Positions 2,695 through 40,247 of a DNA stretch of 64,000 nt are shown here, piece after piece (position 1 is the first letter of the stretch; each line of letters starts with the position of its first letter). The notes below the pieces were generated by a model that ran no database searches, was not told where the DNA came from, and was given only the letters and a program-made list of their open reading frames with translations. The position numbers and the translations under genes were made by a program. The stretch is from a virus (lineage: Duplodnaviria > Caudoviricetes), in IMG/VR virus record IMGVR_UViG_3300001598_000001, positions 67,490-131,489 of that record. One strand, 5' to 3'.

Positions 2695-3702
2695 ATGGGA
2701 CGTAGTACAGTATATAATGATAATTTGACTCAAAATTGGTCAAATGTATCACAACAAAATAAAAGATTAGTTAAAGACTTTTTACAATATTGTAAATCCA
2801 ATGATAAAAGTCCACAAACTCTTCATCAATATGAAGAGTGACTTAAAGTTTTCTTTTGTTGAAATTTTCAAGAAAACGAAGATAAATTTTTTATTGATTT
2901 AAAAAAGAGAGATTTTGTTTATTATTTTGGATGATGTAGAGAGTTAGGAATGAGTGCAAATCGTATTGCCGCACTTAAGTCTGTTCTTAGTAGTTTATCA
3001 TCTGAAATTGAATTATTATATGAAGATTTATATCCTAATTTTCATAATCAACTTAGAGGATTAGAACCTGTACATATTACTACTGTTCGTGAAAAAACAG
3101 TTTTATCAACAGAAGAAATTAATAACATTCTACAAACATTGGTAGAAAAGAAAGAATATCAATTAGCTTGTTATTTAGCATTGTTGTGTGCTTCTGGTGC
3201 TCGAAAAGCAGAAATGCTACAAATGCGACCTGATTTTTTCACTGAAAGCCACGAAGTTTTCGATGGATATATGTATTGCACTCCACCTATTAGATCTAAA
3301 GGAAGGGGAAAACAAGGAAAAATTATTAAAAAATATGTGATTAAAGAATTTTTTAAACCTTTTTTTGATTTATGAATGGAAGAACGTGAAAAAGAAAATA
3401 TTACATTGTCGAATTTATTTGTAACTAAAAAAGATGGTCAATACGTGGAAGCTACCACATCAACAGCTAATAGTTTTGCTGCAAAAATTTCGAAAATGTT
3501 TAATATAGATTATTATAACCACTCTGGTAGACATTATTTTTGTACATTATTAAAATCAATGAATTTACCAGATGATGTTATAGTACAAATTTTTAGTTGA
3601 AGTGACGGATCCATGGTTAAAATTTATGATGATACGCCAGTCGAAGAAAAATTAAATAAATTTTTTATGCAATTTAAAAAGGAAGAAATAAAAGGAGAAT
3701 AG
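2695..3702 (+). CDS. Tyrosine recombinase/integrase, 335 aa (TGA=Trp)
   Basis: Catalytic set R (SGAR), K (RSKG), HxxR (HSGR), H/W position (FS*SD, TGA), Y (KIYD); fragments 2950-3375 and 3376-3600 share the frame. Confidence 0.85.
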
Positions 3703-4731: not shown

Positions 4732-4805
4732 GTTGATTTAATTTAATGGAAGAATAGTTGTTCAGTAAACAATGCACATTGGTTCGATTCCAATAATCAA
4801 CGCCA
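4732..4805 (+). tRNA. tRNA-Thr(AGT), divergent (C33, G73)
   Basis: Acceptor GTTGATT/AATCAAC, anticodon arm GTTGT-TC AGT AA-ACAAT, T arm ATTGG-TTCGATT-CCAAT, encoded CCA. Confidence 0.6.
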
Positions 4806-5058: not shown

Positions 5059-5153
5059 AGGGGCTTAGTGTAGTGGTAGCACACGAGACTTCAAATCTCG
5101 GGTAACAGCGTCCAAAGCTGCGGGTGTGGGTTCGATTCCTACAGCCCCTGCCA
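5059..5153 (+). tRNA. Opal-decoding tRNA-Trp(TCA) with 25-nt variable region
   Basis: Acceptor AGGGGCT/AGCCCCT, G73, CCA; anticodon arm CGAGA-CT TCA AA-TCTCG; T arm GTGGG-TTCGATT-CCTAC. Confidence 0.9.
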
Positions 5154-5161
5154 TATATTTA

Positions 5162-5694
5162 AACAGTATAAATTTAAATATATTAGATCTCGGTGTAAAC
5201 CAGACAATCTGGCCGAGAGTTACAAAGTAATGGATAGGTTTAGAGGATACCCTAAACTGAAAACCAAGATTATTATAGTGATATAATATGAGAAGATACC
5301 AACTAGTATCAACAACGGGTAACGTGCTAATATAATATCGGAGATAAAACCTAAATCCAACGCTCTCGTAATAACTCGTCCATATGCTCATACCAGGTGG
5401 TGCTGATGGTCAACATATGGAAAAACCAACAAGAGAGAATGCCTTGATGTCTAGTAAGTAGACTATAAGTTGGGATAAGGACAAGTAGCTGAATGGCGGT
5501 TCGTATGAAAAAGTACATATTTCAAAATCTGAAAGTCGGTGAAAGTTAGAGGTACCCAGTCCTCTCGATGGTAAAAAGGGCAAGAAGCTTTATGGTCGCA
5601 ACTTAAAGCTCAGACTTGTTCTATTCGTAGTTTAACAATCAGATATTATAAGTGGTAAGACGAAGGTCTCTAATACATTTAAATTTATACTGTT
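5162..5694 (+). ncRNA. Large structured ncRNA (~530 nt), ROOL-like
   Basis: 26-bp terminal helix 5162-5187/5669-5694 with one mismatch; elevated GC, many internal hairpins, no credible ORF, adjacent to tRNAs; family name from size/context only. Confidence 0.6.
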
Positions 5695-8849: not shown

Positions 8850-8923
8850 CGCAGGGTAGAGTAGTGGTTACTCAGTGGGCCCATAACCCACTCAGGCGAG
8901 TTCAATTCTCACCCCTGCAACCA
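8850..8923 (+). tRNA. Initiator tRNA-fMet(CAT)
   Basis: C1:A72 mismatch, GGG/CCC anticodon stem pairs, loop CC CAT AA, CCA end. Confidence 0.9.
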
Positions 8924-15000: not shown

Positions 15001-18000
15001 TGATCTTTCATTAAAAGACGCAGAACAAGTTCTTCGTTATATTAATTATGGTAGTCAGGCTAATAAACAGTTTAAAGAGGAATTAGGTGGACTTGCAAAA
15101 GTTCCTACCACAGCCAAAGAGTTAAAAGATTTTTTAGCCAATGAAAAAGATTTAAATAAATATGCTGCAATTCGTCAATTTGTTGATGATATTGAAGAAA
15201 ATGGTGGGGTACTTACTGACGATCAAGTTCAAATGTTAGCAGATAAAAATGCTATTTTTGAAGGACGTATTAAAAAAGTAGATACTCAAACAAATGAAGC
15301 TGCATCGTATCGTATTGGTGCAAGTCAAGCTAAAGAACTTATTCAAAGATCACAAAACGGAGAAGATATTAGTGGATTTTTAGGTAATTTTGTTGAAGAA
15401 AGACAATTTTATCAAGCTGGTAATTCTGTTTCTGAACTTAAAGAAGAAATTACTTTATTAAAACAAAAATATGAATTACAGTTAAAAATTAATAAAGCTT
15501 TATTAGAAGGAAAAGATAATGAAGCTGCTGTTCTACAAGAACAAGAAAAAGAAGTTGATCTAAAACTTAAAGAAGCTCAGAAATCAACTAATAAAATTGC
15601 TGACACCACAGAAAGAAAAAAATATGTTCGCGATACTCGTAAGGAGATTGAAGAACAATTACAAAAAGAAAATGATCAAGCTTTAAAGTTGTTACAAGCT
15701 CAAAAGAATGATAAACAAAAAGCTGGTCCTAATAAAAATATATTAGCTCGTTTGAGCACGGGATTTGATGAGGGAATTACTCAACGTTTGAATCGTGCAT
15801 TTAGTGGTTATGCTATTTTTGCTAAACTTACTCAAGGGATCCAAACCGTTAAAAAGAATGTTATTGATTTAGATAAAGTTTTGACTAATCTTCGTATTGT
15901 CACTCAACAAAATGAAGAAAGTACTCGAAACTTGATTAAGGGGTATTCAGAACTTGCAGGAGAATTAGGTGTGTCAACAACAGCTGTTGCTACAGCTGGA
16001 CAAGAATGGCTAAGACAAGGCTATGATATAGCAGAAACCAACAAATTAATTGAAGCTTCAACTAAATTAAGTATTTTAGGTATGATGTCTTCTGCTGATG
16101 CTGTTAAATCATTAACCAGTGCAATGAAAGGATTTAAAATGGAATCCTCAGAAGCAATAGATATAGTAGATAAATTAACCAAATTAGATGTTAATGCTGC
16201 TACTACTGCTGGTGAAATTGCTAGTGCATTATCAGAATTTGCAAACGCTGCAAGTTTAGGTGGCTTAAATATTGATCAAGCTTCAGCAATGGCAACTACT
16301 ATCATGGATGTTACTCAAAATAGTGGTTCTCAAGCTGGTAATGCTCTGAAAATGATGTTATCAAGATTTGGTAATGTTAAATCTGGTGCCTATTCAACTC
16401 TTAATATTTCTGGCGATGCAGATACGGAAAGTGCTAGTCTAAACGATGTAGAAAAGGTTTTAAAGAATATTGGTGTATCATTAAGATCATCAAATTTAGA
16501 ATTCCGTTCATTTAGCGAAGTTTTAGATGAAATTAGTGAAAAATGGGTTAATTTAGATAATGTTAGTAAGAATGCAATTGCAACTGCTTTTGCTGGAACA
16601 AGACAACGTGAATCTTTCCTTGTCTTGATGGAAAACTATGATAAATATCAACAATTACTAAAAGTATCTGAAAGTGCCGCTGGAACTTCTGAAGAAAAAA
16701 TTAAATCTTATCAAGAATCTATTGCTGCTTTACAAGAAGAAATAAAAGCCGCATGGGAAAATTTAGCTAATAATAAATCTATTTCTGACTTCTTAAAACT
16801 TATACTTAGTACTACAACCCAACTTATTAAATGATTACCGTGAATAGTTAATATATTAAAACCATTATTAGCTACTAAAACAATTAGTATCGCTTCCAAC
16901 TTTTTTGGTAATGGGTTAAAAAATGGATTTTCTGGTTTATTTAAAAATGTTACTGCTACACAAAAGAATACAACAGCAATTGAAAAATTAACTACAACTT
17001 TAGAAAATACTTCGAACACTTCTGGAAACGGCGTATATAGTCGTAATAATATTGCAGTTGGTGCTGCGGGTATTACATCTACAGGTGCATTAACTTATGG
17101 TAATAAATCTGTCGGTCTTGGTGATGATGGTAAGTATTATTATTTAAAGAACGATGGTTCTTTATCTAAAAGATCAGTTAGTGCTGCGGGACAAAAAGAA
17201 ATTCAACAAACCGCAGAAAATAATAAAAAGCTTAAAAAAGCTGGTAGTTGAAGAAATAAAACGGGTGGTGAAAAAGTTGCTGCTGGTGCAGCTGCTGGAT
17301 TATTAGCTGGGTTAACAGCTGATACCGATACCAAAGATATATATGGTACAGGAGACACAACCGTTAATTCTACATTACAAACTATAGATAAAGTTGCTAC
17401 TGGTGCGGTAACTGGTATAGCTACAGCAATTGGCGGACCTATTGTTGGGGGTATTGCTAATATATTAATGGAAGTTGCTACAAAATATGCAATGCCATGA
17501 TTAGAAAAAATTTTCTTCAAACGCGATTTTGAATTAAAACTTTTAAATAAAAGTATTAATGAAGCAAAAGAAAATATTGAAAAAATTAATAATATTCAAA
17601 ACTCTTTAAATACTTTAGTAGAATTATCAAATAAAAACATTTTAATTGGTGAAGATTATACCAAAGCTGTTGATGAATTCAATAAAATATCTGCAGCACT
17701 GGTTGATGACCCTAAAACACTTAGTGTTTGAAATGAAATTTTACATAATACAGATGATTTATTAGATGGTGTAGATAATGAAACGCTTTCTTTGTCTACT
17801 TTACGAGAAGCTTATTTAACTGGTAGTGCTCAAGAGAGAGCTGAAATAGCTACTGCTTTACGTGCATCATCAGAATTAGTTGAAGCTAGAGAATTCCAAC
17901 GAACTTATTCGGCAAAAATGTATGAAGTTAATGAAACTATTAATAGTGCTCGTCAATATGATGCTGAATTTTTAGAGAAAAACGGAGTTTTAGATCAATA

Positions 18001-20800
18001 TAAACAATATGCTAAAAATAAATATGCACAAATGAGTGATGCCGAAATTATTAAACAATTTGGCAGTGTTGCAAGCGAATTAAAGTATGGAATAAATTGA
18101 CTTGGTGGTTGGACAAATTTTAACACTAATAAAATGACTTCTTTAGACGTTGTTGCTCAGGAAGTTAGAAAATATTTAGAAGATAATGTTGATAAAACTT
18201 TCCAAGACAATTTTAACTCTGATGTTCATTTACGCGAAGAATTATCTACTTTATTAAATGAAAGTGTTCTTGTTGATTATTGAAACCAAACTATTGAAAG
18301 TTTAACTAAACAATTGGAACAAGGTGAAAATGTTAGTGAAGAACTACGCAAAGCTAATAACGAACTAAACAAAGTTCAAAATGCTATTAATTTAAAACAA
18401 AACTATACAGATGAAATTAATTATAAATATGCTCAAGCAGCATTATCTGCTTCTGGTTTAGAAAATTTAACTCAAGCACAATTAAATAATATGGGTTATA
18501 AAGATAAACTTAATAAAATTGCAGAAAATATGGAGTCTTATGGTTATTCTGTTTATAATTCTGATGGTGTGTTATCAGCTCAAGCTCAAACATATATTGA
18601 AAATGCTATTAGAAGTAATAGTAAAATATATGGATCTGTTAGTGGTCAAGTCTATTCATTAGCTGAAGTTTTAAACAAAGATAATGAAAATTTATTTAGA
18701 AATTATCAAGAAATTCTATGGCAGTGATCAGAAGCTTTGGGTGTAAGTGTTGATGAATTAGATGATTTAAAAGATACTTTAGGAGATATTACCTTAGCTC
18801 AAGTTTTAAAAACTCCAGACGAAACACGTCAAAATATTTCTGAACTAACTTCTATGTTCACATCTATTTCTTCTTCTACTGGTATTACCGCTGAAAATAT
18901 AGAGAACATTATTACAAAGTTCCCACAATTATTACCTTATGCAAGTAGTGTTGGTGATTTAATTGGGGGGTTAACCAAAGGCATAGAACAGTATAGTAAA
19001 TTATATGCATATCAGATCACTAATCAAATTTTAAATAGTGAATCTGTACTTTCAGATATTCAAAAAAATATGAGAGAGGGTACTGTAGATGTTGATATAA
19101 GTGAAGATGATCAAAAACAATTATATGAAACATTGTTATCTAACTATTCATTTGGTAATGGAAGTGTTTTAAATGATATGCTTGGTTTAATATGGGGTAA
19201 TGCTGAAGAAAACGGTATAAGTGAGGAAAATCAAGAAAAATTACGAACTATTGTAGAATCTTATTTACCAGATATAGAAAATACGCTTGAGCGAGATTCT
19301 ATTAAGCAACAAATAGATTATCAACAAAAATTATTTGATCAACAAATTAATAATTTACAAGAACAAAAAGAAATGTTAGATAATATAAATCATCAACGTG
19401 AGTATGAAAATAAATTAATCGAAGCTAAACTCAAATTAGAAAATTCTCAAAAAGAAAAGAAAAGAGTTTGAAGATCTGGAGTTGGTTGGACTTATGAAGC
19501 TGATCAAAACAGTATTTTAGAAGCCCAAAAACAATTAGAAGATGTTGAAAATGAAAAGAACGTCTCTAAAATTGATCAAGAAATTCAATTATTGAATTCA
19601 CAAAAAGAGTTATTAGCTAATATTGCTAGTAGTGAAGAATTTGAAAATATGCGAGATTCGTGAAAAGGTTGGTCTGAACAAATGAAGCTTTATAATGAAG
19701 ATCAAGAAACCATAATCACTAATTTATCAACTTTATATAGTTCAATTAGCAAAATTTCTACTAAGGATATAGCTGAAGACATAGCTGATGCTGGAGTAAA
19801 TAATGCTGATGAAAAATTAAATACATTAGATACTTTATATAATACAGCTCAATCTTATATAACTGGCGAAAATAAAAATGCTCCAACTACAGTAACTGCT
19901 TCCCAAGAATATGCAGATTGAGAAAATAATCGAAATAATGCTCTAACAGCTTATCAAACAAAAGCCAATGAGTATAAGAACGTTATTACTCAAGATTGAC
20001 AAACCAAACACTCAGATCATGCAGCCATTATGAAAGCTTCTCAGCTTCATAATCAACAAGATACTATCATGATTGATGGAAAAGCCTATACTGTTGGCAA
20101 TCAACCATTAAGTGACACAGATCCTTACTATCAATGAGTACAAGATGACCTTCGCGCAGGCGAAAAAGGCCCTCAAGACAGTAATGGTAAGGGTAAAGGT
20201 AAGTATGTTAAAGTATTTGATCCAAAAACAAGTACAGAGACAAACGAAGATGGAATATTAAATTATTCTCGAAGTAAAAGTAAAACATATGGAGAGGTTA
20301 ATGGTTCTGATGATAAAAAAGATTATAGTAGTTTAGTGTTATCAGATGTGGCAGCAAGTTTGAGTGATGGTACTATTTTAAGTAGTGAAAGTGGAACCGT
20401 AGAATATGTTATGGTTATGAACCATCAACTTAGACAATTAGATCCGAAGGCCAAAGGAACTTTAGATTTAAATAGTCATGGCGTTTTATTGAATGAATTA
20501 GGAACAGAAGCAATTGTAACACCTCAAGGTACAATTACAGCTCTTCCTTCTCACTCAGGTATTGTGCCAGCTGATATTACTCGTAATTTATGAGAATTAG
20601 GAGAAATTTCTCCTACACTTACACATTTGCTTGATCATTTGAATAATCAAATGGTTCCTGGAAAGAGTGTATTTGGTAATGATGAATCATTTAATATTAA
20701 TACTATTAATATGACAGTTAATGCTGATAATAGTTTTGATGCTCAAAAATTTATTGAGAGTGTTAGACAACGCGCAGCTTTAACAAAACATAATCGTTAA
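9065..20800 (+). CDS. Giant tape-measure protein, 3911 aa (TGA=Trp), with N-terminal RNAP-like and central PD-(D/E)XK-like domains
   Basis: Eleven track ORFs share one frame separated by TGA; TP901-type TMP core (LDKVLTNLRIVT...AGQEWLRQG...AFAGTRQRESFLVLM); VTRDP...GDYDGD at ~12908-13042; C-terminal NELGTEAIV motif. Confidence 0.9.
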
Positions 20801-20827: not shown

Positions 20828-21742
20828 ATGATTAAAGATTATTATATTTATGATGGTACAACTTTATTAGGATTGTTGTATATTCCCGTTGGAGTAAGTT
20901 CAGATAAAATTATTCCTTCGTTTATTACAACACTTGGTAAAGGATGTTTTAAAAATCAAAATTTTTCTACTATCATTATACCACCATCCATAAAAATTAT
21001 TGAAGATAATGTTTTTGAAAATTGTAAATTTTTAACATCACTAGAAATTCCATCTACAGTTGAAACTGTTGGAAATAATATTTGTTGTAATTGTAACAAA
21101 TTACAAACTTTTAAATATTCATCCACAACACAAATGGGTAAATTTATTTTACAAAATTGTTATATGTTAAAAGAGTTAATCATTAATGATGAAAATTTTC
21201 GTGTTTGATATCACAATTCTGAAAAAGTATTCGGAATAGGTGTTTTAGATTATGTTACAGATAATGGATATAAAATTTATAAAGGACACTGAAGTATTGA
21301 AGAATTATTAGGTTGGGGATTACCAGTCGGTAAAGAAAATTTAATTTATTTTGTAGAATATAATAATAAAGTTTGGTATGATCCTTCTTTAGAACAAGCT
21401 TATAAAGGATGTCAATATCTTAATAGTAATATGTCGATTTGTGATTTTTTTCATAAAAAATTTTTACCTATGGATACAATCACATGATCGGAATTTTCTA
21501 TTATATTGGGCATTTGTTCGCAAGGAAAACCATTCTGAGATTTAATGTGTCATAAAGATTTAAATACTAACAATGATAATATTTCTGTAAATGACTTAAT
21601 CAAAGTTTTACAAAAACATCAATTTTTATCTCCTATATTGTTAAGATGAGTAGAAGTGTTACAACATAAAAATGAATGTTTTACAAAGTTTACAGATATT
21701 AGTTATGAAAATATAAATTTATCTCAATATTTTCAATTATAA
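20828..21742 (+). CDS. BspA/TpLRR leucine-rich-repeat protein, 304 aa (TGA=Trp)
   Basis: Repeats IIPSFITTLGKGCF, IIPPSIKIIEDNVFENC, LEIPSTVETVGNNIC; frame continues to TAA 21740-21742. Confidence 0.75.
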
Positions 21743-27831: not shown

Positions 27832-29871
27832 ATGGACAATATAATATTACACCATGGTTTTGATGCTAAAACAAAAATTACGATGGCCAGTGGTTCTCGT
27901 AAGAATATTGAAAATTTAGTTGTTGGTGATAAAATTAAATCTTATGATATTCAAACTGGTGAAAACTCCATTGGTGAAGTAATGAATGTCACACGACAAA
28001 TATGTCCAAATGTAGTCAAGTTTGTTTTTGAGTCTAAAGAATTAATAGGATGTAGAGACACTTTGTTTAGAATAGATGAACAATGAAAACAAATAGAAAT
28101 TGGCGATTTGGAATTAAAAGAAATTATTATTTTAGAAGAACAAGAACTAATTGAGTTAACTGTTGAGCCTAACCATAATTATTATGTAAATGGTTTGTTG
28201 GTTCATAATAGTGGCGAACCATCTCCAAACGATGTTGTCAGTAAAAAAATTCAATTAAAAAATCGTAGTGGAGAAATTTTATTTCCAACTACAAAATTAG
28301 AATTAGTTGAAGGTTTATTATCAGCTTTGACAGGAAAACAACCTACATTAGATTTTCAAACACCTTATACTCAAGTAGGTAGTAAAAATAAAATACCTCA
28401 AATTACGACTAATAATTTAGGACAAGTTACTAGTATTACTGAAATAGAAATTGAAGGTGGGGGTGGTGGTACTCCTAGTAGTTATCTTAAAAATGCTTTT
28501 GTCAATCAAAGCGATAATTCTTTAGTTGTAGTTAAGCAAGATGACTCATCAGTTACATTTATTCCTACAGATACTAATACTATTACTACTCTTGTAGAAG
28601 GCAATGATATTAAAATTGTTGATTCTGGAACAGATGGAAATCATAATTATACCATTGGTACTGTTGGTCTTGGTACTTTTGCTAAAAAAAGTAGTTTAGC
28701 TAGTACTGAACTTACCGATACCAATAATTTAATACGTAAGAACGATAATGTTTCGGAATTGACTAACGATGCTGGATATTTATCTAGTGTTTCAAAAACC
28801 GATATTGGTTTAGGTAATGTTGAAAATAAATCAAGTACCACTATTAGAAGTGAAATTACTTCACAAAACGTTATTGATGCTTTAGGATACACACCTTTAG
28901 AGGTACATAATCCAATTGATAATGAATTAAAAAGTGATTCTGTTAATGCTGTTCAAAATAGAATTATTAAAAGTGAATTAGATGGTATTAGAGAAATTGC
29001 CTCTGGCAAATCAAAGAATTATGTTATTTCTGATGAAGATAATATTACTGGAGAAGAGACTGATGAAGGTTATATTAATGTAACGGCTATTACAGGTATT
29101 GGTTCTTCTTATGCTGAATTATCTCAAAAATTAAAAATAGGAGATAATATTTATGTCACTAATATTTTACAACCTGATTTTTGGGTTTCTCAAATTAACT
29201 CAAGTATTAGTTTACACGTTTTAGAAATTGCTAAACAAAGTGTTAGTGGAGTTACAGTTAATGGTCGTAATGTTGTTGGATCAGATAATATTGCTGCTAT
29301 TACTGGTTTAATTGAAACTGTTCAAGCCACAGGTGGTGCTCATATTGGAGATAAAGGTACACCATCAGTTTCTTTAACCACTTCTGGAGGAGTTGCTACT
29401 CTTACATTTAATTATTTAAAAGGTGAAGATGGTGCTCAAGGAAATGCTGGAACAATTACTAGTGCTACAGCTACTGTAGATTACAACGATGGTACACCAA
29501 GTGCCGATGTTACATTAGGTGGTACTCCAGAAGCACGTACAATGCAATTTAATTTTCATAACATTAGTAAAAATATTGGTGTTTCTGTTAATGATGAAGT
29601 TTTAAATTTAACAGCGGGCAGCCATTTAGAAGGTATTGTGGTTCCAGCTACAACAACTGCTGGACGAGTATTAATGTCTACAACTACCAGTGGTGCTGCT
29701 GTATGAGGTTCGGTTGGAGGAGGAAATATTATTTCTGGTAGTGGTGCTCCTAGTGGAACTCCAAGCCCAGCTGTATATCCAACTATTTATATTGACACTA
29801 CTAATAAAGTTTTATATTATTGTATATCTGGAAGTACTTGAGTTGCTTTAGGTGCACACTGGTTGGCATAA
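27832..29871 (+). CDS. Hint-domain-capped tail fibre-like protein, 679 aa (TGA=Trp)
   Basis: N-terminal [27 protein letters not shown]...[13 protein letters not shown] Hint motifs; downstream fibre motifs ([24 protein letters not shown], short collagen-like KGEDGAQG). Confidence 0.8.
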
Positions 29872-29899: not shown

Positions 29900-31060
29900 A
29901 TGAGTAAAATTATTGTTAGTTATTATAATAATATTCGAACCAAAATTCTTAATGAATTGCAACGAAGAACTAGTCTATATAATGTTGGATTAGATCTTAC
30001 TATGCCTCCCCAAGCCGTAGACAATACTAAATTGACTTTTTTACAAGGTCAGTTAAACAATAAATTAACCCAGGTTGCTACAGTTCCAGGAATTACAAAT
30101 GATCCTCAAATTACAAAATCTATTGAACCTTTACAAACCAAAGTAGATCAATTATCTAATATTGCTATCACTGCAGCTTCAGGTGGTTGTAACGCTGGTT
30201 GTGTTGGTTTATGTGCTGGCGGATGTTTAAATACATGTGTCAGTGGATGTTCTGGATCATGTTCAGGATGTGGAGGAAATTGTACTTCTTCATGTTCGGC
30301 TGTTTGTAAAACTGGATGTCAAGGTTGCTCTCACTCTTGTGAAAGTAATTGTACAGGATGCAGTGGATGTGGAAATGCATGTGATGGTTCATGTACAGGA
30401 AACTGTGGAGCACGTTGCTCCAGTAGTTGTGGTAGCAGTTGTTCACTAAACTGTGGCACTGGCTGTGGTGGATGTGCATCTACTTGTAGTAAAAGCTGTG
30501 GAAATGCTTGTAGTGCAAGCTGTTATCAAGGCTGCGGTGGATCTTGTGGTGATAACTGCGGTGGATCTTGTGGTGGATCCTGTTCAAGTTGTTCGGCCAA
30601 CTGTAAGGGTGGTTGCGGATTTTTCTGCTCTGGTGGTTGCGCTAGTGGATGTGCTAGCTGTGCAGGCGGATGCGATGGTGGATGTACAGGATGTCAAGGT
30701 TGCGGAGGAACTTGTTCAGGTTCGTGTACAGGAACTTGTGGTACTGGATGTAGCGGAAGTTGTCAAGGATGTAGTGGATGCAATGGATGTTCTAGTGGAT
30801 GTTATACTGGGTGTTCAGGTTGCACTAGTGGATGTAGTGGATATTGTAGTGCTACTTGTTCAGCTTGTAATGGCTGTACTGGAACTTGTCATGGTACATG
30901 TGTCCAAGCATGTAATGGTTGCACTGGTTGTGGTAGCAGCTGTGCAAACGTATGTGGTGCTAACTGTACAGGCGGATGTTCTACTAGTTGTTCAGCAACT
31001 TGTGGTGCCAACTGTGCAGGATATTGTTCTACTACTTGTACAGGCAGTGCTAAGAATTAA
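29900..31060 (+). CDS. Cys-rich CXXX-repeat protein, 386 aa; predicted radical-SAM substrate
   Basis: 96-aa Cys-free N-terminus ending SGG, then 76 Cys all spaced Cxx or Cxxx; AGGAGG RBS. Confidence 0.9.
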   Translation: MSKIIVSYYNNIRTKILNELQRRTSLYNVGLDLTMPPQAVDNTKLTFLQGQLNNKLTQVATVPGITNDPQITKSIEPLQTKVDQLSNIAITAASGGCNAGCVGLCAGGCLNTCVSGCSGSCSGCGGNCTSSCSAVCKTGCQGCSHSCESNCTGCSGCGNACDGSCTGNCGARCSSSCGSSCSLNCGTGCGGCASTCSKSCGNACSASCYQGCGGSCGDNCGGSCGGSCSSCSANCKGGCGFFCSGGCASGCASCAGGCDGGCTGCQGCGGTCSGSCTGTCGTGCSGSCQGCSGCNGCSSGCYTGCSGCTSGCSGYCSATCSACNGCTGTCHGTCVQACNGCTGCGSSCANVCGANCTGGCSTSCSATCGANCAGYCSTTCTGSAKN

Positions 31061-31074
31061 AAGGAGAATCAGAT

Positions 31075-31395
31075 ATGGAATTAAAAGAATGTTGTTCACA
31101 GTCAAATCATTGTAATACAACAATATATACAATGAAAATAGATAGTGGTTTTAGAGATTATATACAATCTATTTGATGGCTATATGATAAAAATTGTAGA
31201 AACATTGCTGATTGTATTTTTTATAATATTGATTATACATTATATTCAGAAGAATTAAAAGAATTATTATGTACTAAACGTTATATAACATGATTAATTA
31301 GTTCTATGTTACAAAAAAATAATCCAGAATTATCACCAGATGTTTTATGAAAAATTGATTTTGCTGAAAGTGAGGTTATAGTTTATGGCTTATAA
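31075..31395 (+). CDS. Small CXXX-system accessory-like protein, 106 aa (TGA=Trp), absent from ORF track
   Basis: AAGGAG RBS; ends LWKIDFAESEVIVYGL, a W-x-I-D-F terminal pattern like TIGR04116-type proteins; overlaps rSAM start. Confidence 0.65.
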
Positions 31396-32791
31396 TAGAA
31401 TAAAAAACGAACAATTTCAAGATATGATCGCAAGATTATTTCCAGAACATAATATACAAAATTCTATTACATGTGAAGGATGTAATGATCAAAAACATTT
31501 GGTAAGACCAGTAACTTTTCAAGTTACAGACGCATGTAATCTTAGATGTAAATATTGTTATCAAATTAATAAACAACATCACAAAATGCCTTTTGAAGTG
31601 GCTAAAAAGTTTATTGATATGTTATTATCATATAAAACTTGTGAAGATAATCCATATATAAATTGTGAAAATACTCCAGGAATTTCAATAGAATTTATTG
31701 GAGGAGAACCTTGATTAGAAATTGATTTAATTGATCAAATTACTGATTATTTTATTAAAAGAATGTTGGAATTACATCATCCTTGGGCTACAAAATATAT
31801 GATTAGTATTTGTTCCAATGGTATATTACACATGGAACCAAAAGTACAAGCCTATTTAAAAAAACATAAAGATCGCTTATCTTATTCTATTACTATAGAT
31901 GGGGATAAAGCGTTACATGATTCGGCTAGAGTTTTTGAAGATGGTGTTACAGGTTCTTATGATATTGCTATAAAAGGTGTAGAAAATTGATTGTCAATGG
32001 GAGGAAAAATGGGGTCAAAAATTACATTAGCTCCACAAAATATTGATAAAACTTTTTCAGCTGTTAAACATTTTATAGAATATGGTTATGACGATATTAA
32101 TATTAATTGCGTTTATGAAGAAGGTTGAACCCTTGAACACGCTAAAACACTATATAATGAATTAAAAAAAGTAGCAGATTATATGTTAGATAAAAATATA
32201 GTTAATGATATACGTTTAGCAATGTTTGAAGAAACTTTCTTTAAACCAAAAGCCGAAGATGATATTAATACTTGATGCGGAGGTAATGCATCAATGATCT
32301 CTGTAGATTGAAAAGGAGATATTTATCCATGTATTAGATATATGGAATCATCTTTAGGTTCAAGTAGAGAGCCAATTATTGTTGGCAATGTTGATGAAGG
32401 ATTGGTTACAAAACCAGAATGAGAAGAAATTATGAATTCTATGCGTGCTGTAACCAGACGAACACAAAATACAGACGAATGTTTTTACTGTCCAATTGCT
32501 GCTGGATGTTCAGATTGTCAAGCATATAATTATCAAATGTATGGAACTCTTAATCATAGAGCAACATTTATTTGTTGTATGCACAAAGCTAGAGCATTAG
32601 CAAATGTTTATTTTTGAAACAAATGATATAAACAATCGAATGAAAACAAACGTTTTCACAATTATGTACCTGATGATTGAGCTTTGGAAATTATTGATCA
32701 AACAGAATTAGACATGTTAAAACAACTAGAAAATGATATTCAAGATCGTCCTATTATTAATGACGATCCTACTATAAAAAAGGAGAATTAA
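31385..32791 (+). CDS. Radical SAM/SPASM peptide maturase, CXXX-repeat target type (TIGR04115-like), 468 aa (TGA=Trp)
   Basis: CNLRCKYC; IEFIGGEP; SPASM motifs WCGG...GDIYPC...CFYCPIAAGCSDC...ATFICCMHKARALAN. Confidence 0.9.
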
Positions 32792-32793
32792 AT

Positions 32794-33045
32794 ATGTTAG
32801 TATTTGATAAAGAACGTGTAATGCAATATTTTAAAAATCACACAGTTGAATTAATTATCCATAATAACACTTTAGAAGATGTTGAAAAATTATGTAATCA
32901 ATTAGAAGGATTAGAAGCAGAATTGGTTCTACTTCGTCATGATGATTTAACTGATGAAAATATTTATGTATATTGTGTTGCACATAATAATATAGATTAT
33001 TTAATTCCTATGAATAAAAAAGATATTTTTCTTAAAGAAAAATAA
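32794..33045 (+). CDS. Hypothetical protein, 83 aa, in rSAM operon
   Basis: AAGGAG RBS, abuts rSAM stop. Confidence 0.65.
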   Translation: MLVFDKERVMQYFKNHTVELIIHNNTLEDVEKLCNQLEGLEAELVLLRHDDLTDENIYVYCVAHNNIDYLIPMNKKDIFLKEK

Positions 33046-33090
33046 TCATATAAAAAATAATTAAACAGAATGTTAAAAGGAGAAAAAAAT

Positions 33091-33387
33091 ATGGAAAAAA
33101 GAATAGAAGTTGTTGAAGTAGATGTAGAATTAGCTAATGCATGTGAAGAAGCAGATTATGAATATAATTCTAAAAAAGATGTTATTGCCACTTATATTAA
33201 TAGTGGTTTAGATACTTCTTTGCCTACTTTTATTAAATATCAAGAAGAATTACAAGCTGCTTATAAAAAATTTATGGCTGCAAAAAGTGCGGTTGAACAA
33301 AAATATATTTTATCTAAATATAAAGATTGCACAGTTACTTGAAGTTTAAATTATGCAACAAATGAGTTAACTCTTACTATTTTATAA
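33091..33387 (+). CDS. Second CXXX-system accessory-like protein, 98 aa (TGA=Trp)
   Basis: AAAGGAG RBS before 33091; helical body then VTWSLNYATNELTLTIL, same terminal pattern as 31075 gene. Confidence 0.7.
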
Positions 33388-33423: not shown

Positions 33424-33630
33424 ATGGCTAAAATAAGACAAATTAATGTTAACGGAATTACTTATGATGTTAGTCAAGATGTAGATTTAATTTACAGCCC
33501 TACATCTAGCAATCCACAAAGCGGACAAGCTGTGGCAGGAGCTATTTCTACTAAAGCAGATAAAAGTCAGCTGGGAACACAAGTAATTTATGATATAGTA
33601 GATGGAACATTAAAAATTACAACTAAATAA
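33424..33630 (+). CDS. Small tail fibre-associated protein, 68 aa
   Basis: TAAGGAG RBS; SSNPQSGQAV motif; C-terminal GTLKITTK shared with 38042 gene. Confidence 0.7.
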   Translation: MAKIRQINVNGITYDVSQDVDLIYSPTSSNPQSGQAVAGAISTKADKSQLGTQVIYDIVDGTLKITTK

Positions 33631-33788
33631 ATATATATGAAATACCCATATATAATTAATTATTTTATATGGGAAAAATAAATAATATAATATTTTATTT
33701 AAGAACGAGTAGTAAATGTTTATATTATTTAATAGATATACTTTAATAGTATATACAAGGACTAAATAAAAGGAGGAGTAAAGTATAT

Positions 33789-34148
33789 ATGGCAAATAGA
33801 AATATATACAAAAAAGGCGGTGGAGGAGGACTCGGAAGCTACATAATAGTCATAAAACGAACAGGTACGGGTTCTGCTTTTGAAACAGAAACTCCTTGAA
33901 GAAAAGTTTTAGATTCTTATGCTAATGCCGAGACTCTATATCTATCCGTTGTTGAGTTAGATGATTCTTTTCGAGTCTTAAATGTAGACTACGTAAGAGC
34001 AAACAATCAACTCAAATTATTAGCCTTGGATTCTGAAAGAAATAAATTATATACTTTAACTTCAGATAGACAAGGTTGGCTATCCATCACAGAAACCGAC
34101 GCCGGGGGTGGAAGCATATCGGGCGATATAACATATGAGGAGATATAA
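33789..34148 (+). CDS. Hypothetical tail-module protein, 119 aa (TGA=Trp), absent from ORF track
   Basis: AAGGAGG RBS; MANRNI...ITYEEI mirrors both termini of the next gene. Confidence 0.6.
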
Positions 34149-34151
34149 AAT

Positions 34152-35411
34152 ATGGCAAACAAAAACATTCAATTGAAAAACAGAAATGGAGATTTATTAT
34201 TCCCTCGAACCAGAGTTGGATTATTAGTTAATGATTCTGGTGTAGCTGTAGACGTTGCTCTTCAGAGTGATCTCCCTGAAAAAGTTAGTGATTTAGTAAA
34301 TGATGCTGGATATATTACAGTTGATGTCAGCACTTTAGCTAATTACTACTTAAAAAGCGAAACCTACACACAAACAGAAGTTAACAATTTAATCGCAGCT
34401 GTAAAACAATTTGCTTATGAAATTGTTACTAGTGACCCAGAAAAATGGGATCAAGAAGAAGCTGCAAAACACCTAAATAAAATTATTCTTTATAAACCAT
34501 CTGGTAAGAGCTACTACATTGAATATGTTGTAATTAACACAGGTTCAGAAGCAGATCCAGTTTATAAAGTTGAAAAATTAGGTGATACAGATATTAAATT
34601 AGAAAACTATTATACTAAATCTGAAATTGATGGTAAAGTTTCTGAATTAAACACTGCTATCGCTGGTAAAGTTGCTCAATCTGCATATGACACTAAGATT
34701 GCTGACATCGAAAGTGACATTGCTGACAAAGTAGATCAAGATGAATACGATGGTAAAATTAGTGAACTTGAAACTGCTATTGACGGTAAAGTTGATAAAG
34801 TTACTGGAAAAGGATTATCAACTGAAGATTACACAACAGCTGAAAAAACAAAATTAGGTGGAATTGAAGCTGGTGCTGAAGTTAATGTCATTGAAATCAT
34901 TAAATTAAATGGTCATGATTTATCAGTTGATAGTGCAAAGAGAGTTGATTTAGGTACTATTGCTACTAGCGAAGAATTGACTACTTTAGCAGGAAGAGTA
35001 AGTGCTCTTGAAACTAAAGTTGGCAATGACACAGTTGCAAACCAAATCGACAGTAAGATTGCTGCTCTTAATTTAGCAAATACTTATTATGGTAAATCAG
35101 CTGGTGAAGCCAATGCTACTGCTATTACTGGTTTACAAGGTAGAATGACTACAGCTGAAAATGCTATTGATGCTTTAGAGTTATTAGTTGGTGACACTTC
35201 AGTCTCATCTCAAATTGATGCTAAGATTACTGCTCTTAACTTACCAAATACTTATTATTCTAAGACTGCTGGTGAAGCTAATGCTGCAGCTATTGCTGGT
35301 ATCAAAAATGGTACTACAATCAATAACTTCGGTGGAGTTGAAAGTGCTCTTGCTGACATTGAAAGTGAAATCGAAGCTTTACCATTCGTTACTTACGAAG
35401 AAATTGCTTAA
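34152..35411 (+). CDS. Coiled-coil tail/head fibre protein, 419 aa
   Basis: KVDKVTGKGLSTEDYTTAEKTKLGGIEAGAEVN fibre motif, YYxKSE repeats, internal duplicated QIDxKIxALNLxNTYY. Confidence 0.8.
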   Translation: MANKNIQLKNRNGDLLFPRTRVGLLVNDSGVAVDVALQSDLPEKVSDLVNDAGYITVDVSTLANYYLKSETYTQTEVNNLIAAVKQFAYEIVTSDPEKWDQEEAAKHLNKIILYKPSGKSYYIEYVVINTGSEADPVYKVEKLGDTDIKLENYYTKSEIDGKVSELNTAIAGKVAQSAYDTKIADIESDIADKVDQDEYDGKISELETAIDGKVDKVTGKGLSTEDYTTAEKTKLGGIEAGAEVNVIEIIKLNGHDLSVDSAKRVDLGTIATSEELTTLAGRVSALETKVGNDTVANQIDSKIAALNLANTYYGKSAGEANATAITGLQGRMTTAENAIDALELLVGDTSVSSQIDAKITALNLPNTYYSKTAGEANAAAIAGIKNGTTINNFGGVESALADIESEIEALPFVTYEEIA

Positions 35412-35436
35412 TTAAATAAAAGTAAAGTTTTATTGG

Positions 35437-35462
35437 GATAGGGGAGAAATCCCCTATCTTTT
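35437..35462 (+). terminator. Intrinsic terminator
   Basis: GATAGGGGA-gaaa-TCCCCTATC then TTTT. Confidence 0.7.
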
Positions 35463-35489
35463 GAAAAAATAAAGGAGGATTATATAATT

Positions 35490-36713
35490 ATGGCAAATTA
35501 TTATGAATCAAAACACACAGGAAATCAAATTGATAGAGGAATATATAAAACCAAATTTATGGGTTACTTTATTGATCAACAAATGTATAATCCTACTGAA
35601 CTAGGAAATAAACCTGCCACAACACAAGAAAAACAATTATGTTTGATGACTCTCGTTAACGGTGCCGTTTATCAAGACTTAAGTACAGGTAGTTTTTATA
35701 CATGCAAAAATAACACTTTAGTTAAAGTCTCTACGGTTAGTAATTACTCTGTTACTGGTAGTGCTGATGATGGAACTGAAGCTTTTAATTCAGACGATAA
35801 CGAGATTGATTGAACTAAAACCACAATTACTTTAAGTGATGGTACAAGTGTTAATACTAAAAATTTAGTAATTGGTGACAATTTTTTTGTTGATATAACA
35901 GATAAACCTGATAGATGAGTTAGTGCAATATATAGAAAATCTGGAGGAGCTATTTCATCGATTACATTTTCAAAATTAGAAACTCAAAAAATTGATTTAA
36001 ATAATGTAGCATATGTAAACGAAAATAGTGTTAACAGATTTGTAAGTACTAATTCATTTGCTGGACCTGTTGGAAATCAACAAACTCAAGCTGGTGTTTA
36101 TTTAGGAGTGGATGGTAATCCATTACCTGGACCAAATGCTCATATATCAATAATTAGTGATAATAATGCAAGTTATATTGACTTTGGTAAACCTAATAAT
36201 GATTATAGTTTTAGAATTATTAAATGAGACGATTCTTCTAATACTAACGCCCAGTTTGTTTATGACGAGGGGAATACTCTCACTTTACCACGTAAAACGG
36301 GTATTTTAGCAGTAACAACTGATATTCCAGATATTACTGGTAAAGTTAATAAAACTGGTGATACTATGACTGGTTCTTTAACTATTGGAACAGGAACACC
36401 TTTACAATTTACAGGTGTTGGCAGTGGAACATATAATAAAGCAGCTTTTGTCTGTAATATAAACGATGGTATTGGGTTTGAAGCACCAATGACTACTGAT
36501 AGTGTATCAGGAACCAAATTACCAATTACTTTCTCTTGAAGAGGTGGCAGTGCCACTATGGGGGGTTTTAAAGTTATTGATACAGGATGCTATGAAAAAA
36601 TTGGTAGTAATAATTGGAGAAAACTTACTGCTGTTACCAACAATGGTACGAATGTTGGCAACTTAAATTTACAATTAGAAAATGGTGTTTTAAAAATTAC
36701 CACAAATTCTTAA
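35490..36713 (+). CDS. Tail fibre protein, 407 aa (TGA=Trp)
   Basis: Frame continues through TGAs to TAA 36711-36713; LTLPRKTGILAVTTDI and KVNKTGDTMTGSL fibre motifs. Confidence 0.75.
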
Positions 36714-36775
36714 TATATGATAATAATAAATAAAAATATTTTTTTATTGGTTAAAACAAGGAGGTAGTATGTATT

Positions 36776-38029
36776 ATGGCACAAATTAATCAATATATTA
36801 ATTTTTCGAGTGGCGAATCGCTACCTTTTACTTTTACAAAAGATGAAACCTGTGTTGATGTTGATACTAACATTGACAATATTATTGAACAATTAAATAA
36901 TAATTTAACTTCGCCGCGTTTTAAAATTTTAGTTTTATATCCAGACGAAACTATTAATTATGAAATACCATTAGATGATATTCAAATTGGTGGAAGTTAT
37001 AGTGAAAATTATCAAAATGGACAAAGACGTTCTTTGTCTTTTACTTTATATAACGAGTCAGGTAAATATACACCTGATATTAATACATTATGAACTGGAA
37101 CACGTTTGCGTTTAGAAATGGGTTTAAATTTAATTGATAACACTACTATATGATTTTCAAAGGGAATTTATGTTATTAATAAATTAACTCCTAATTATAC
37201 TTCTTCTGGTAAAACATTACAAATTTCTGCTTCAGATAAATTTAGTTTGTTTGAAGATTCTACAGGAAAATTAGATGTTACTTATGAAATAGAAGCTGGA
37301 TCTAATATTGAAGAAGTTATCAAAACAATTTTACTAACTGATATGGGAAATGGTTTTCCTTTGGATTCCCGACCTATTATTTATCATTCTAGTTTAAAAA
37401 ATAAAACAACACAATGTGTTATTTCTAAAAGTCCTGGAGATTCTTATGGAAGTATTTTATTAGATTTAGCGACGCAATTATCTGCAGAAATTTTTTATAA
37501 TGCTCAAGGATATTTAACTATTTTACCAATTAACGACGTTACTAATGATAGTGACAAAACATTAATTTATAATTTTAATACTTCAAAAGGAGATATTTCA
37601 CAATTAGATTTTAATTTTGATATGAATACTATTGTTAATAAAATTATTGTTATTGGTAGTAGTGCTAATGGTGGGGTTTATCGTTCTGAAGCATTAAATG
37701 ATGATATTAGTTCTCCACTGTGTTATCAACGTATTGGTTATCGTTTAGGTAATGTTATTAATGATAGTAATATTACTTCGAATGTATTAGCCGAAGAGCG
37801 TGCAAAATATGAATTGCGTCAACAATTAGTAATTAAAAGTTCAACAACTGCTAGTGTATTATTTAATCCACTACTAGAAGTTAATAATTTAATTACTATT
37901 ACTGATGAATTTTTTAATTTAAATTATGAACGTTTTTTAATTCAAAGTGTTTCTTGTAGTTTGGACTTTTCAGGAACCACCTCAATAACTTTCAGTAATT
38001 TAAGAAATTTACCTTTTGTAGTAAAATAA
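36776..38029 (+). CDS. Tail hub/baseplate-like protein, 417 aa (TGA=Trp)
   Basis: 36776-37093 and 37247-38029 share a frame; IVNKIIVIG, LAEERAKYEL, NPLLEVNNLITI hub-type motifs. Confidence 0.7.
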
Positions 38030-38041
38030 GGAGGAAAAATT

Positions 38042-38488
38042 ATGGCAAATACAATAATTGAACCAGGATTACGCGCCGACATTATGCGAAAACAAATGGA
38101 GACCAAAAATCAATTAAAGAACAAAGGCGATATTTATGTTGGAACTGGTGTGTCTGATGAAAGTACTGGAGAAGTTATTTACGCTACAGATTTTTTATCT
38201 GTAGGTTCAAACAATACAATATTACAAGCAGATAGTAATGCTACTAATGGTTTAAAATATGATTTTATTTCAGAAAACAATTTTGGTAATAATAAATTAC
38301 CTGCATCGATCATTACCGAGAGTACTACTAAAAAGTTTGTTACTCAAGATCAAATAGATAGTTGAACCGCAAAACAAGATGCTATTACAGATAGTAATAA
38401 ACTACCAGTAAATAAAATAAGCGGTTTAGGTACACAAGTTACTTATAATCTTGATGAAGACGGAACTTTAAAAATTACCACAAAATAA
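38042..38488 (+). CDS. Tail fibre-associated protein, 148 aa (TGA=Trp)
   Basis: KGDIYVGTG motif, QIDSWTAKQ, ends GTLKITTK. Confidence 0.7.
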
Positions 38489-38503
38489 TAAGGAGGGATA
38501 TAT

Positions 38504-39421
38504 ATGGCAAATAGTCACGATTTACAATTTAATGGTACTAATGTTACCAATATTTTATACAACAATTCGCAAGTTAATATTTTAAAATATGGTGCCTCTG
38601 GTCAAGAAGAAGTTCGTTGAGCAAGACCTTTTACTTATTCTACAGGAACCCTTCCAACAGGAGTTGCTAGTATTACTTGTTATAGACAAACTTCACTCTG
38701 CGGTGCTAGTACTGGAGTAGTAGCTAATGGAGCTACAATTTACTATGGAGATGGATTATATTTTACAGCTACTGCAGCTAGTGGATACAACCCTCCAACT
38801 TCAAGTTATCCAGATAGTTCACATTTATTGACCGTTAATAGTACTATTATAGGAGCAACATATATTACACCTGGACAAAAAATGAACTTTTATGCAAGTA
38901 TTACATGTGGAGCTGGATTTAATGGTAGTGCTGATGATCCAGCAGTAGTCTATCGATTGGCTGGAAGTTCAGAAATTAAAGGTATATCAACTGGAAGTGG
39001 TGCAACAACAAATATAAAAGTAACCACTGGTTCGATTGAAGTCGGAATACTAGATAAATATTGAACAGGTGACTATGTATGGATGGGAACATTGGTGACT
39101 GATAGTCAAATTACTATTGATTATTATCCAGATAAAAGCTATACAACAGAAAGCCCACGTATTAGTGTTGCACCTAAAAAGCGCGGTAGCGCTACTTTTG
39201 GTATAAGCTGAGGAAGTACAAAACGTCTTGCTAAAAATTTGACAGGTACTTTAGCTCCTGGCAGTGATCCACGTTTAGCATTCGATTCTATTGAATATGA
39301 TGGTTCTGTGGTTACGGTATATATTAGAAATACTATGACCAGTGGTAGTTATTCAATAACAGGTTCTGTAACAGTTTCTGGAACCGTCAATGAATATAAT
39401 AGTACAATTATAGAATATTAA
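38504..39421 (+). CDS. Putative receptor-binding fibre-tip protein with invertible C-terminus, 305 aa (TGA=Trp)
   Basis: AGGAGG RBS; contains site A (38818-38836) then TV...TYITPG, matched by inverted cassette at 41185. Confidence 0.75.
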
Positions 39422-39453
39422 AAAAAAGAGGATTTTTTATCCTCTTTTTTTTT
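39421..39453. terminator. Bidirectional terminator after fibre-tip gene
   Basis: A-tract-GAGGAT/ATCCTC-T-tract. Confidence 0.7.
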
Positions 39454-39638: not shown

Positions 39639-40247
39639 TTAAATGTTTATAATTTGTAAATATGTTTTTAGCGTATTTAAATGACAGTGTAAACGATTTT
39701 TAATCCAATTATTACTTCTACCGTCTTTTTTCCATTTAATAATTTTTTCAGTATATGGCTCTAATATATGATGTTTGTTTCTACTGCCCACTGGTCTACC
39801 CAATTGAATTCCTTGTGCTTTTCTTAAAGCCAACGCTTCTTTAGTTCTTTGTGAAATTAGACTACGTTCAATGTCTGCTGTTAGACTGAACGCAAATGAT
39901 ACAACTTTAGAAGAAATAGAATCATCTAATATAAAACCTTCTTTAATAGTATAAAACTGTACATGCTTTTTACTTAAGGTGTTAAAAATATTCATAATCA
40001 TATATAAGCTTCTTCCTATTCTAGAAATTTCTGTACAAATTAAAGTATCATCTTTTTTTAATTTTTTTAATAAGTCCCCTAATAAACGTTGTTCAGGATC
40101 TTTTGTGCCAGATATAGTTTCTTCAATCCACTTATCAATTGTAATATTGTGTTCTTTACAATAATTGTTAATTTCAAACCTTTGGTTTTCAACAGTTTGA
40201 CCTCCTGTAGAAACACGAATATATGCATATTTCATAAATAAAATCAT
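39639..40247 (-). CDS. Serine recombinase (DNA invertase/resolvase), ~200 aa
   Basis: YAYIRVST catalytic Ser, SRIGR, ERSLISQRTKEAL, LGRP, C-terminal HTH; start may be 40235. Confidence 0.92.
   Translation of the reverse strand: MILFMKYAYIRVSTGGQTVENQRFEINNYCKEHNITIDKWIEETISGTKDPEQRLLGDLLKKLKKDDTLICTEISRIGRSLYMIMNIFNTLSKKHVQFYTIKEGFILDDSISSKVVSFAFSLTADIERSLISQRTKEALALRKAQGIQLGRPVGSRNKHHILEPYTEKIIKWKKDGRSNNWIKNRLHCHLNTLKTYLQIINI

Follow-up and report, generated by a model that had tools for sequence, protein, structure and literature searches.

A bacteriophage that encodes a radical S-adenosylmethionine (SAM) enzyme and a protein with 76 cysteines among its tail genes raises the question of what the two make together. 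The locus is a five-gene cassette at 29900-33387 of a 64,000-nt stretch of viral DNA (Caudoviricetes; IMG/VR record IMGVR_UViG_3300001598_000001, positions 67,490 to 131,489), which we call the window and to which all coordinates refer. The record is a complete genome of 131,489 bp with direct terminal repeats, the window is its second half, and the host of the phage is an anaerobe. We propose that the cassette is expressed late and that its product, a protein modified by the enzyme, is destined for the tail end of the virion, a reading to which we give a probability of about 0.45. The 468-aa radical SAM/SPASM enzyme would very probably be the maturase, and the 386-aa Cys-rich 'ladder' protein its substrate.

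Under the standard genetic code the cassette region is broken up, and its genes close up once TGA is read as Trp. All five lie on the + strand: the ladder gene (29900-31060, a 386-aa open reading frame (ORF)), B (31075-31395, 106 aa with 3 TGA), the maturase (31385-32791, 468 aa with 9 TGA), D (32794-33045, 83 aa) and E (33070-33387, 105 aa with 1 TGA, or 98 aa if the start is at 33091). Spacing within the cassette ranges from an 11-nt overlap to 45 nt, and the maturase starts 325 nt downstream of the end of the ladder gene on the same strand.

The counts given for this cluster in a preliminary description of the DNA were all correct: the first of the five genes encodes 386 residues with 76 Cys, the first of them at residue 97 after '...AASGG', and successive Cys are separated by three residues (58 times) or two (17 times), with no other gap. 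Residues 97-380 comprise 76 Cys (27%), 69 Gly, 50 Ser, 24 Thr, 20 Ala and 16 Asn, together with 3 Asp, 1 Glu and no Trp; this stretch holds no TGA. Cys periodicity so strict over 284 residues cannot be due to chance. The presumed substrate region, which is the ladder with a six-residue tail and the stop codon (30188-31060, + strand), follows an N-terminal domain of residues 1-96 (29900-30187, + strand), a divergent member of a domain of about 105 aa. The ladder had been likened to the TIGR04114 target of bacterial CXXX-repeat systems; the Cx3 repeat is indeed there, and the 18-position TIGR04114 model gives seven separate matches in the ladder ORF, the best of 17.3 bits and all below the cut-off of 20. 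When the whole protein was scanned with this model hmmscan reported no family, possibly owing to composition filters. TIGR04117 reached 11.5 bits at best (cut-off 50) and TIGR04118 had no match (cut-off 35), which places the protein outside the other CXXX target models. There is no Pfam or NCBIfam family for it; the sole PHROG is phrog_6085 (function unknown, residues 93-158), and structure matches in BFVD were to other ladder proteins only, at E 0.07 or weaker. AlphaFold2 (AF2) returned residues 113-356 of the full protein at a predicted local distance difference test (pLDDT) score of 30-40; the unmodified chain is apparently one that AF2 cannot model, and the fold of the ladder cannot be interpreted from such a prediction.

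The enzyme belongs to the TIGR04115 maturases, as had been proposed. Its score is 434.4 bits (cut-off 350), residues 42-410 aligning with positions 3-359 of the 359-position model, and a six-frame search with the same model gave 418.8 bits. Pfam recognises Radical_SAM and SPASM domains. The cysteines of the CX3CX2C motif (C51, C55 and C58) and seven SPASM cysteines (298, 316, 366, 369, 375, 378 and 397) do not vary among 30 homologues. Next in score come PapB (171.5 bits), CcpM, the SCIFF maturase, the QhpD family (TIGR03906, 89 bits), DynA and HxsB (82 bits), and weaker scores extend to the anaerobic sulfatase maturase (49 bits) and to cyclophane formers (44-49 bits).

We propose that the enzyme works along the 76 Cys and joins each thiol to a carbon of a nearby residue, so that a chain of thioether rings would result. 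This chemistry, which we hold to be slightly better than an even bet, is suggested by the nearest characterised families, since these act on Cys-rich peptides and form thioethers. The resulting cross-links would be redox-proof, oxygen-independent and stable in the reducing gut. A different product can be drawn from the same composition. The ladder could be mainly a scaffold for metal or iron-sulfur clusters, much like a metallothionein, with the enzyme performing other chemistry (oxidation or conversion of Cys, or cluster delivery). The high Cys content, the Gly/Ser/Thr spacers and the near absence of carboxylate acceptors would suit such a scaffold, as would the low pLDDT of the apo chain, which is expected if the fold needs ligands or cross-links; the SPASM enzymes, moreover, include chemistries other than thioether formation, among them the sulfatase maturase and cyclophane formers just listed. 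We nevertheless consider a metal scaffold improbable, because the strict Cx3 period is the defining trait of TIGR04115-family targets, because the best-scoring characterised relatives (PapB, CteB and the QhpD family) all make Cys thioethers, and because covalent modification is what a dedicated maturase with a dedicated accessory, present in more than 120 loci, would suggest.

Capture of the substrate would be expected to differ from that in related enzymes. The nearest solved structure is CteB (5WGG, 113 bits), with profile positions 21-372 corresponding to CteB 88-425. CteB residues 1-87, which we take to be a domain like the recognition element (RRE) of ribosomally synthesised and post-translationally modified peptide (RiPP) systems, have no counterpart in the window maturase. 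The same is true of the first ~75-90 residues of the SCIFF, CcpM, HxsB and CefB maturases; profiles of the related families begin to align at positions 74-93, equivalent to maturase residues 17-45. The window maturase therefore lacks the N-terminal substrate-recognition region of its relatives. Naming the missing region an RRE rests on the CteB structure and on the discussion of PapB in PMC12373016. Given this difference, we infer that the substrate would be captured through the ~100-aa N-domain of the ladder protein together with accessory E and its divergent paralogue B.

The N-domain of the window protein is recognisable only with a profile built from the N-domains of other loci; neither a word-seeded search with residues 1-100 of the protein nor phmmer against the related loci found a homologue. 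A hidden Markov model (HMM) of 69 N-domains aligns end to end with window residues 5-97 (12.9 bits, E 6e-6 for a single target). The consensus of the other loci is LTAxEINxLKxKVKAEMxRR..GSL..Y.G..YDF..P..G..I..EHG.K; two positions, R23 and C97 (where the ladder has its first Cys), never vary in the alignment, and conservation exceeds 90% at E19 and R22. AF2 places helices at residues 6-24, 42-59 and 76-87 with pLDDT of about 60-90. The domain is carried by 103 ladder proteins among the fetched loci and was never seen without a ladder. Its family numbers 632 clusters (50% identity) among 1.84 billion representatives, and nearly all of the 150 matches listed, in proteins of roughly 70-540 aa, have it starting at most a few residues from the N-terminus. 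The N-terminal region had been proposed as a leader and/or a tail anchor. Since the domain is conserved and confined to ladder proteins, a dedicated role in recognition or handling, or as a leader, fits better, and the generic tail anchor fits less well. The only strongly conserved stretch of the ladder itself is its first three units after the N-domain, SSCRGACTGLC in most loci and SGGCNAGCVGLC in the window. It is compatible with this, as speculation, that modification starts at these units and moves along the low-complexity chain.

B ends ...LWKIDFAESEVIVYGL and E ends ...TWSLNYATNELTLTIL, both of the type W-x-(I/L)-(D/N)-(F/Y), and the two small proteins singled out on this account do fall into one accessory family by both HMM and hhalign. 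For E a start at 33091 is more likely than one at 33070, since the Shine-Dalgarno context AAAAGGAGAA-N-ATG is common to B, D and E and the Met at 33091 is the invariant first column of the family alignment. An accessory HMM grown from E matches in 124 related loci, almost always between the ladder gene and the maturase. E itself scores 86.6 bits; B aligns over its full length and collinearly, including the C-terminal W-x-I-D-F, with a weak score (15.4 bits, E 1.6e-3), and hhalign relates B to the phage-type accessory profile at a probability of 76.6% (E 2e-5, 86 columns). The window thus holds two accessory paralogues, E canonical but displaced downstream and B divergent in the canonical slot. 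The preliminary description had equated them with TIGR04116. That curated model (cut-off 50 bits) recognises neither: no match to B or E came up at an E limit of 1, nor in six frames at a limit of 10. Homology is what stands: the phage-type profile, with E as its first row, aligns by hhalign with bona fide TIGR04116 members from four other loci (L164, L169, L167 and L163) at 95.3% (E 2.4e-8, 93 columns), and B and E are a divergent branch homologous to the TIGR04116 proteins.

The AF2 model of E (pLDDT 93) has a beta-alpha-alpha-beta-beta fold. VIA-align returned Z up to 7.7, all for generic helical hairpins, and in BFVD the model matches only uncharacterised phage proteins of ~90 aa. The idea that the accessory is a stand-alone PqqD-like RRE acting in trans, a winged helix of three strands and three helices, is neither favoured nor disfavoured by the model, which has no clear match to a solved RRE or other solved protein. 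D is an ORFan, with no homologue in the 161 related loci or in 5.8 billion protein clusters and no usable match in the Atlas. It had been considered as a conserved component of the system and was dropped for want of homologues; D is probably not a conserved part.

The codon usage of the maturase bears on the time of its expression. Nine of its Trp codons are TGA and one is TGG, in line with the earlier statement that the enzyme, like late genes, needs TGA readthrough. TGA stands at Trp columns 248, 297 and 411, which are Trp in 29 of 29 homologues, and at column 432 (28 of 29). The structural genes at 901-39421 are rich in TGA, and the tape measure gene (9065-20800, a single 3,911-aa ORF) has 28 TGA to 12 TGG. 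The genes for the DnaB helicase, primase, Erf-like protein and DNA polymerase have none (the polymerase has 14 TGG), and one exonuclease gene of the replication block has 4. As the maturase is TGA-rich in the manner of the structural genes, it can be made only when TGA is read through, along with the structural proteins. The TGA signature ties the maturase to late expression, and recoding of TGA to Trp provides an independent, sequence-level argument for its co-production with structural proteins. The ladder gene is uninformative on timing, having no Trp codon of either kind.

The window encodes a TGA-reading tRNA (anticodon UCA) at 5059-5150 on the + strand (ARAGORN; Rfam tRNA 59.9 bits). Its variable arm of 22 nt is unusual in a tRNA for Trp and its ARAGORN label is SeC, yet TGA in the maturase falls at invariant Trp columns. 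Directly after this suppressor tRNA comes a full-length ROOL RNA (5165-5688; Rfam RF03087, 233 bits against a gathering score of 99). The tRNA finders differ elsewhere: a tRNA at 4732-4802 was found by Rfam only, and a tRNA-Met at 8850-8923 by ARAGORN only (it does not reach the Rfam gathering score).

The cassette sits within the tail morphogenesis module, between fibre genes as first described, with the tape measure upstream and the tail proteins at 34152 and 36776 downstream. Immediately preceding it is a fibre-like gene (27832-29871, + strand, 679 aa) whose PHROG matches are families of unknown function and whose product shares the motif IQLKNRxGxxLFP with that of the gene at 34152. Following it are genes like those for fibre, tail and baseplate proteins (33424-39421, + strand, by PHROG matches), among them a match to tail protein phrog_10588 (34152-35411) and one to both tail protein phrog_1887 (3e-40) and baseplate hub phrog_177 (36776-38029). 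The first strong terminator after the cassette is at 39420-39452.

Related loci recur in this setting. The maturase has more than 3,000 homologues, some of them interrupted by inteins, and is present on 306 IMG/VR contigs; 161 related loci were fetched, of which 75 non-redundant ones were used for neighbour counts. A ladder gene with at least 8 Cys lies beside the maturase in 146 of the 161, nearly always directly upstream on the same strand. The median number of ladder Cys per non-redundant locus is 52 and the maximum 119, which makes the 76 of the window ordinary. In five loci (L011, L091, L102, L111 and L118) the ladder is split into one gene with the N-domain and 11-32 Cys and a second with 41-96 Cys and no N-domain, and the members of such pairs sometimes overlap in different frames. 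The isolate Desnuesiella massiliensis has the order tail protein, baseplate wedge proteins, tail protein, fibre-like protein, ladder, 185-aa protein, accessory, maturase and holin, and baseplate markers of the D. massiliensis type occur in 26 of the 75 non-redundant loci. Besides D. massiliensis mt10 (L123), cultured hosts of prophages with the cassette include Neglectibacter timonensis SN17 (L097), Anaerobacterium chartisolvens DSM 27016 (L135), Eubacterium pyruvativorans i6 (L095) and Vallitalea maricola (L140). For 117 upstream neighbours from these 75 non-redundant loci, those of the commonest 25 PHROGs that bear a name all denote tail fibre, tail, collar-fibre, minor tail or baseplate proteins; in Pfam, Phage_tail_fib, BppU_N, Mtd_N, Mu gp48, P2 GpU and P2 I recur. 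Downstream, families of endolysin and holin recur. A group of 24 large phage contigs encodes an 816-aa protein in which the ladder is joined to two glycine-rich PF12810 domains, and an endolysin gene follows the maturase there; the same domains also fill a neighbouring 888-aa protein.

From this recurrent tail-module position it can be argued that the ladder product is associated with the virion or its tail, for which we judge the odds to be about even. The product would not be exported; it would either become part of the tail or fibre apparatus, as a built-in or an attached component, or leave the cell with the particles at lysis. Neither an ABC transporter (ABC_tran) nor a C39 peptidase (Peptidase_C39) is encoded in the whole 131-kb genome, which extends to the full phage the earlier claim that the window has no exporter or leader peptidase. 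Together with the 816-aa fusion this argues against a small diffusible peptide as the ladder product.

The export check also bears on the view that an ordinary secreted RiPP cluster has lodged in a phage, its leader to be cleaved and its Cys-rich core exported. The maturase family was defined on bacterial RiPP-like clusters, and such clusters exist with precursors of 66-80 aa and an ABC exporter (L164, L167 and L169). We recovered these three loci as a control for the classical form. Their enzymes, of ~715 aa, are fusions of TIGR04115 (510-573 bits) and TIGR04119 (235-251 bits); their accessories score 101-103 bits on TIGR04116 in L164 and L169 and about 38 (37.9) in L167; L164 and L169 have an ABC exporter after the enzyme, and the L169 precursors are 66-80 aa long with 8-9 Cys. 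The loci most distant from the window (37-39% identity; Halanaerobiales, Halothermothrix and a Clostridiaceae genome) are free-standing bacterial clusters of this RiPP-like kind. Clusters independent of tail modules, which had been named as grounds for refuting the virion-fibre reading, thus occur in a distant branch with ABC exporters, and not as a rule in the branch of the window. The window substrate, by contrast, has 386 aa and a folded N-domain of ~100 aa in place of a short leader, and TIGR04119, listed at first as part of the matching classical system, is absent along with the exporter and peptidase (no match in the whole 131-kb genome at E up to 10). In a FastTree phylogeny of 72 maturases seven classical-type loci lie on one side of a split with a Shimodaira-Hasegawa-like (SH-like) support of 0.95, and the window is among the N-domain loci opposite. 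The phage form, with its large substrate carrying an N-domain and with neither TIGR04119 nor exporter, is accordingly a distinct branch, and a secreted RiPP is very improbable here.

The cassette has hosts of several kinds: myovirus-type prophages, phages of 60 kb and of 90-175 kb, and phages recoded for TAG or TGA. The closest maturases (64-66% identity), those of L170 and L171, are on phage contigs recoded for TAG as Gln rather than TGA. This difference from the TGA recoding of the window implies that the cassette has moved between phages of different codes. In L171 it adjoins an Mtd_N fibre gene. Close relatives of the phage, sought with the tail protein at 36776, were not found. Among the cultured phages of INPHARED there was no close maturase; the best, at 34% identity, were from faecal metagenome phages, and jumbo phages of Salmonella and Erwinia have maturases at about 26%. 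The cultured Salmonella phage SPN3US (L176, NC_027402), a distant cousin, has two unannotated ORFs of ~133 aa (1115-1513 and 1527-1928) with 20-21 ladder Cys each upstream of its two radical SAM genes; the gp100 of its annotation is the second ORF read out of frame.

The same enzyme and substrate could also make a product that stays outside the virion, a late cargo ('moron') freed by lysis or acting inside the infected cell, for which a bacteriocin-like or adhesive matrix protein, a decoy, or a redox or metal buffer can be imagined. Several observations weigh against a place in the virion, and many of them suit such a cargo. The slot between fibre and lysis genes is a classic cargo site, so that position by itself is no proof of a structural role. 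Just before the ladder gene stands a promoter-like site (TTGACA-17-TATTAT, 29792-29820), in AT-rich DNA in which such hexamer pairs are common. Distribution over the varied phage types and codes is patchy. A DNA polymerase search found relatives at 35-40% identity only, with TIGR04115 in none of four records; the nearest complete polymerase relative has no maturase, implying that the cassette is dispensable for that lineage. In L170, the closest relative examined, the cassette adjoins SSB and NrdD and not annotated tail genes. The ladder protein has no homology to a known fibre or virion domain in Pfam, NCBIfam, PHROG or BFVD, its N-domain never occurs on other fibre proteins, and the model of E finds no clear relative in the PDB by Foldseek (best E 0.56). 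PapB-type chemistry requires acidic acceptors and the ladder has only four acidic residues, so that the acceptor, and even the type of reaction, may be a different one.

What speaks against cargo is that fibre-like and tail genes flank the cassette on both sides with no terminator around it, that the maturase carries the TGA signature of a late gene, that the fusion of ladder and glycine-rich domains suggests a large structural protein, and that no export route is encoded. A product outside the virion seems to us rather unlikely on this evidence, and we retain the proposal of a modified protein at the tail end.

It is possible, and we put this forward tentatively, that phages of strict anaerobes use a radical SAM enzyme to make a chain of thioether rings that serves as a stapled, redox-proof rod or tip of the tail. 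If so, it would serve where extracellular disulfides are unreliable and would be the first RiPP-type cross-linked virion protein on a full-size substrate. A cross-linked tail component would represent a new kind of post-translational chemistry in virions and a disulfide-free means of stabilising fibres in gut phages, and the enzyme would be one able to install very many cross-links processively. Radical SAM/SPASM maturases have been studied as producers of small peptides for secretion, and the partner of this one, encoded at the host-recognition end of phage genomes, is a protein several hundred residues long with dozens of target Cys. At such loci in Clostridia the RiPP calls of genome-mining tools are probably prophage tail modules. 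New from this window are the timing based on recoding, the paired accessory paralogues, the classical positive control, the size of the N-domain family and the export check over the whole genome.

Other features of the module may be recorded here. Homology of the tape measure is limited to about residues 2000-3600, leaving its N-terminal ~2000 residues unexplained. Just after it comes a BspA-type leucine-rich-repeat protein (20828-21742), and a 1,515-aa protein is also encoded upstream of the cassette, along with the fibre-like gene. The latter begins with a gp41-1-like mini-intein (Hint; 27832-28220, residues 10-126, ending VHN|S; E 5e-5 to solved inteins). With stops in every frame before it, there is no N-extein, and self-cleavage as a pro-domain may be all that the Hint domain does. 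The peptide (D/N)G(T/V)LKITT, encoded at 33600-33630, 36678-36713 and 38456-38491, closes three fibre-module proteins (of 68, 407 and 148 aa) and may be a docking strand that they share. The last fibre gene is followed directly by a 202-aa gene on the - strand (39639-40247), which lies between two terminators and has an N-terminus like that of a serine recombinase or invertase (YIRVSTxxQ), as judged by eye; a search for long inverted repeats around the fibre genes, which invertible fibres would suggest, gave none that were convincing. A tyrosine integrase gene (Phage_integrase, 2695-3702, 5 TGA) indicates that the phage may be temperate.

To our knowledge the CXXX-repeat families (TIGR04114-TIGR04119) were defined years ago by comparative genomics only, and in the literature we found no paper describing a phage form of the cassette. 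The window resembles the classical CXXX system in having a maturase above the TIGR04115 cut-off, a TIGR04116-homologous accessory, a Cx3 target and the order target-accessory-maturase. It differs in the size of the substrate (386 aa with its own N-domain), in the lack of TIGR04119 and of an exporter, in accessories that TIGR04116 misses, and in its location in a tail module.

Four characterised systems invite comparison. PapB, the maturase of freyrasin (a ranthipeptide with Cys-to-Asp thioethers in CX3D units), shares the SPASM architecture and the four-residue period of the substrate, and the score of the window maturase on the PapB model NF047865 is below the cut-off of 340. PapB docks the leader on its own RRE and needs an Asp or Glu acceptor C-terminal to the Cys (PMC12373016). 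The window enzyme has no RRE region and the ladder offers 4 acidic residues per 76 Cys; as PapB requires an acidic acceptor and the ladder has almost none, the chemistry cannot be PapB-like in detail. CteB, the SCIFF maturase (PDB 5WGG/5WHY), is likewise a thioether-forming SPASM enzyme with a Cys-rich substrate, which is a peptide of ~45 aa with six Cys as opposed to a protein of 386 aa. QhpD is a radical SAM/SPASM enzyme that installs Cys thioethers in a protein subunit and not in a secreted peptide. Acting on the gamma-subunit of quinohemoprotein amine dehydrogenase, it is the nearest precedent for the stapling of a structural protein, and it differs in making few cross-links in a small subunit of a periplasmic dehydrogenase, with no repeat ladder and no link to phages. 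Finally, the HXS antiphage system has an effector with HxS repeats that is matured by a radical SAM enzyme and provides bacterial defence by acting on phage DNA entry (PMC13128918). That system is a bacterial defence whereas the cassette is encoded by a phage, and HxsB scores only the 82 bits given above; what the two have in common is an orphan SPASM maturase with a repeat target, which in the HXS system proved to have a role in the conflict between phage and host and not as an antibiotic peptide.

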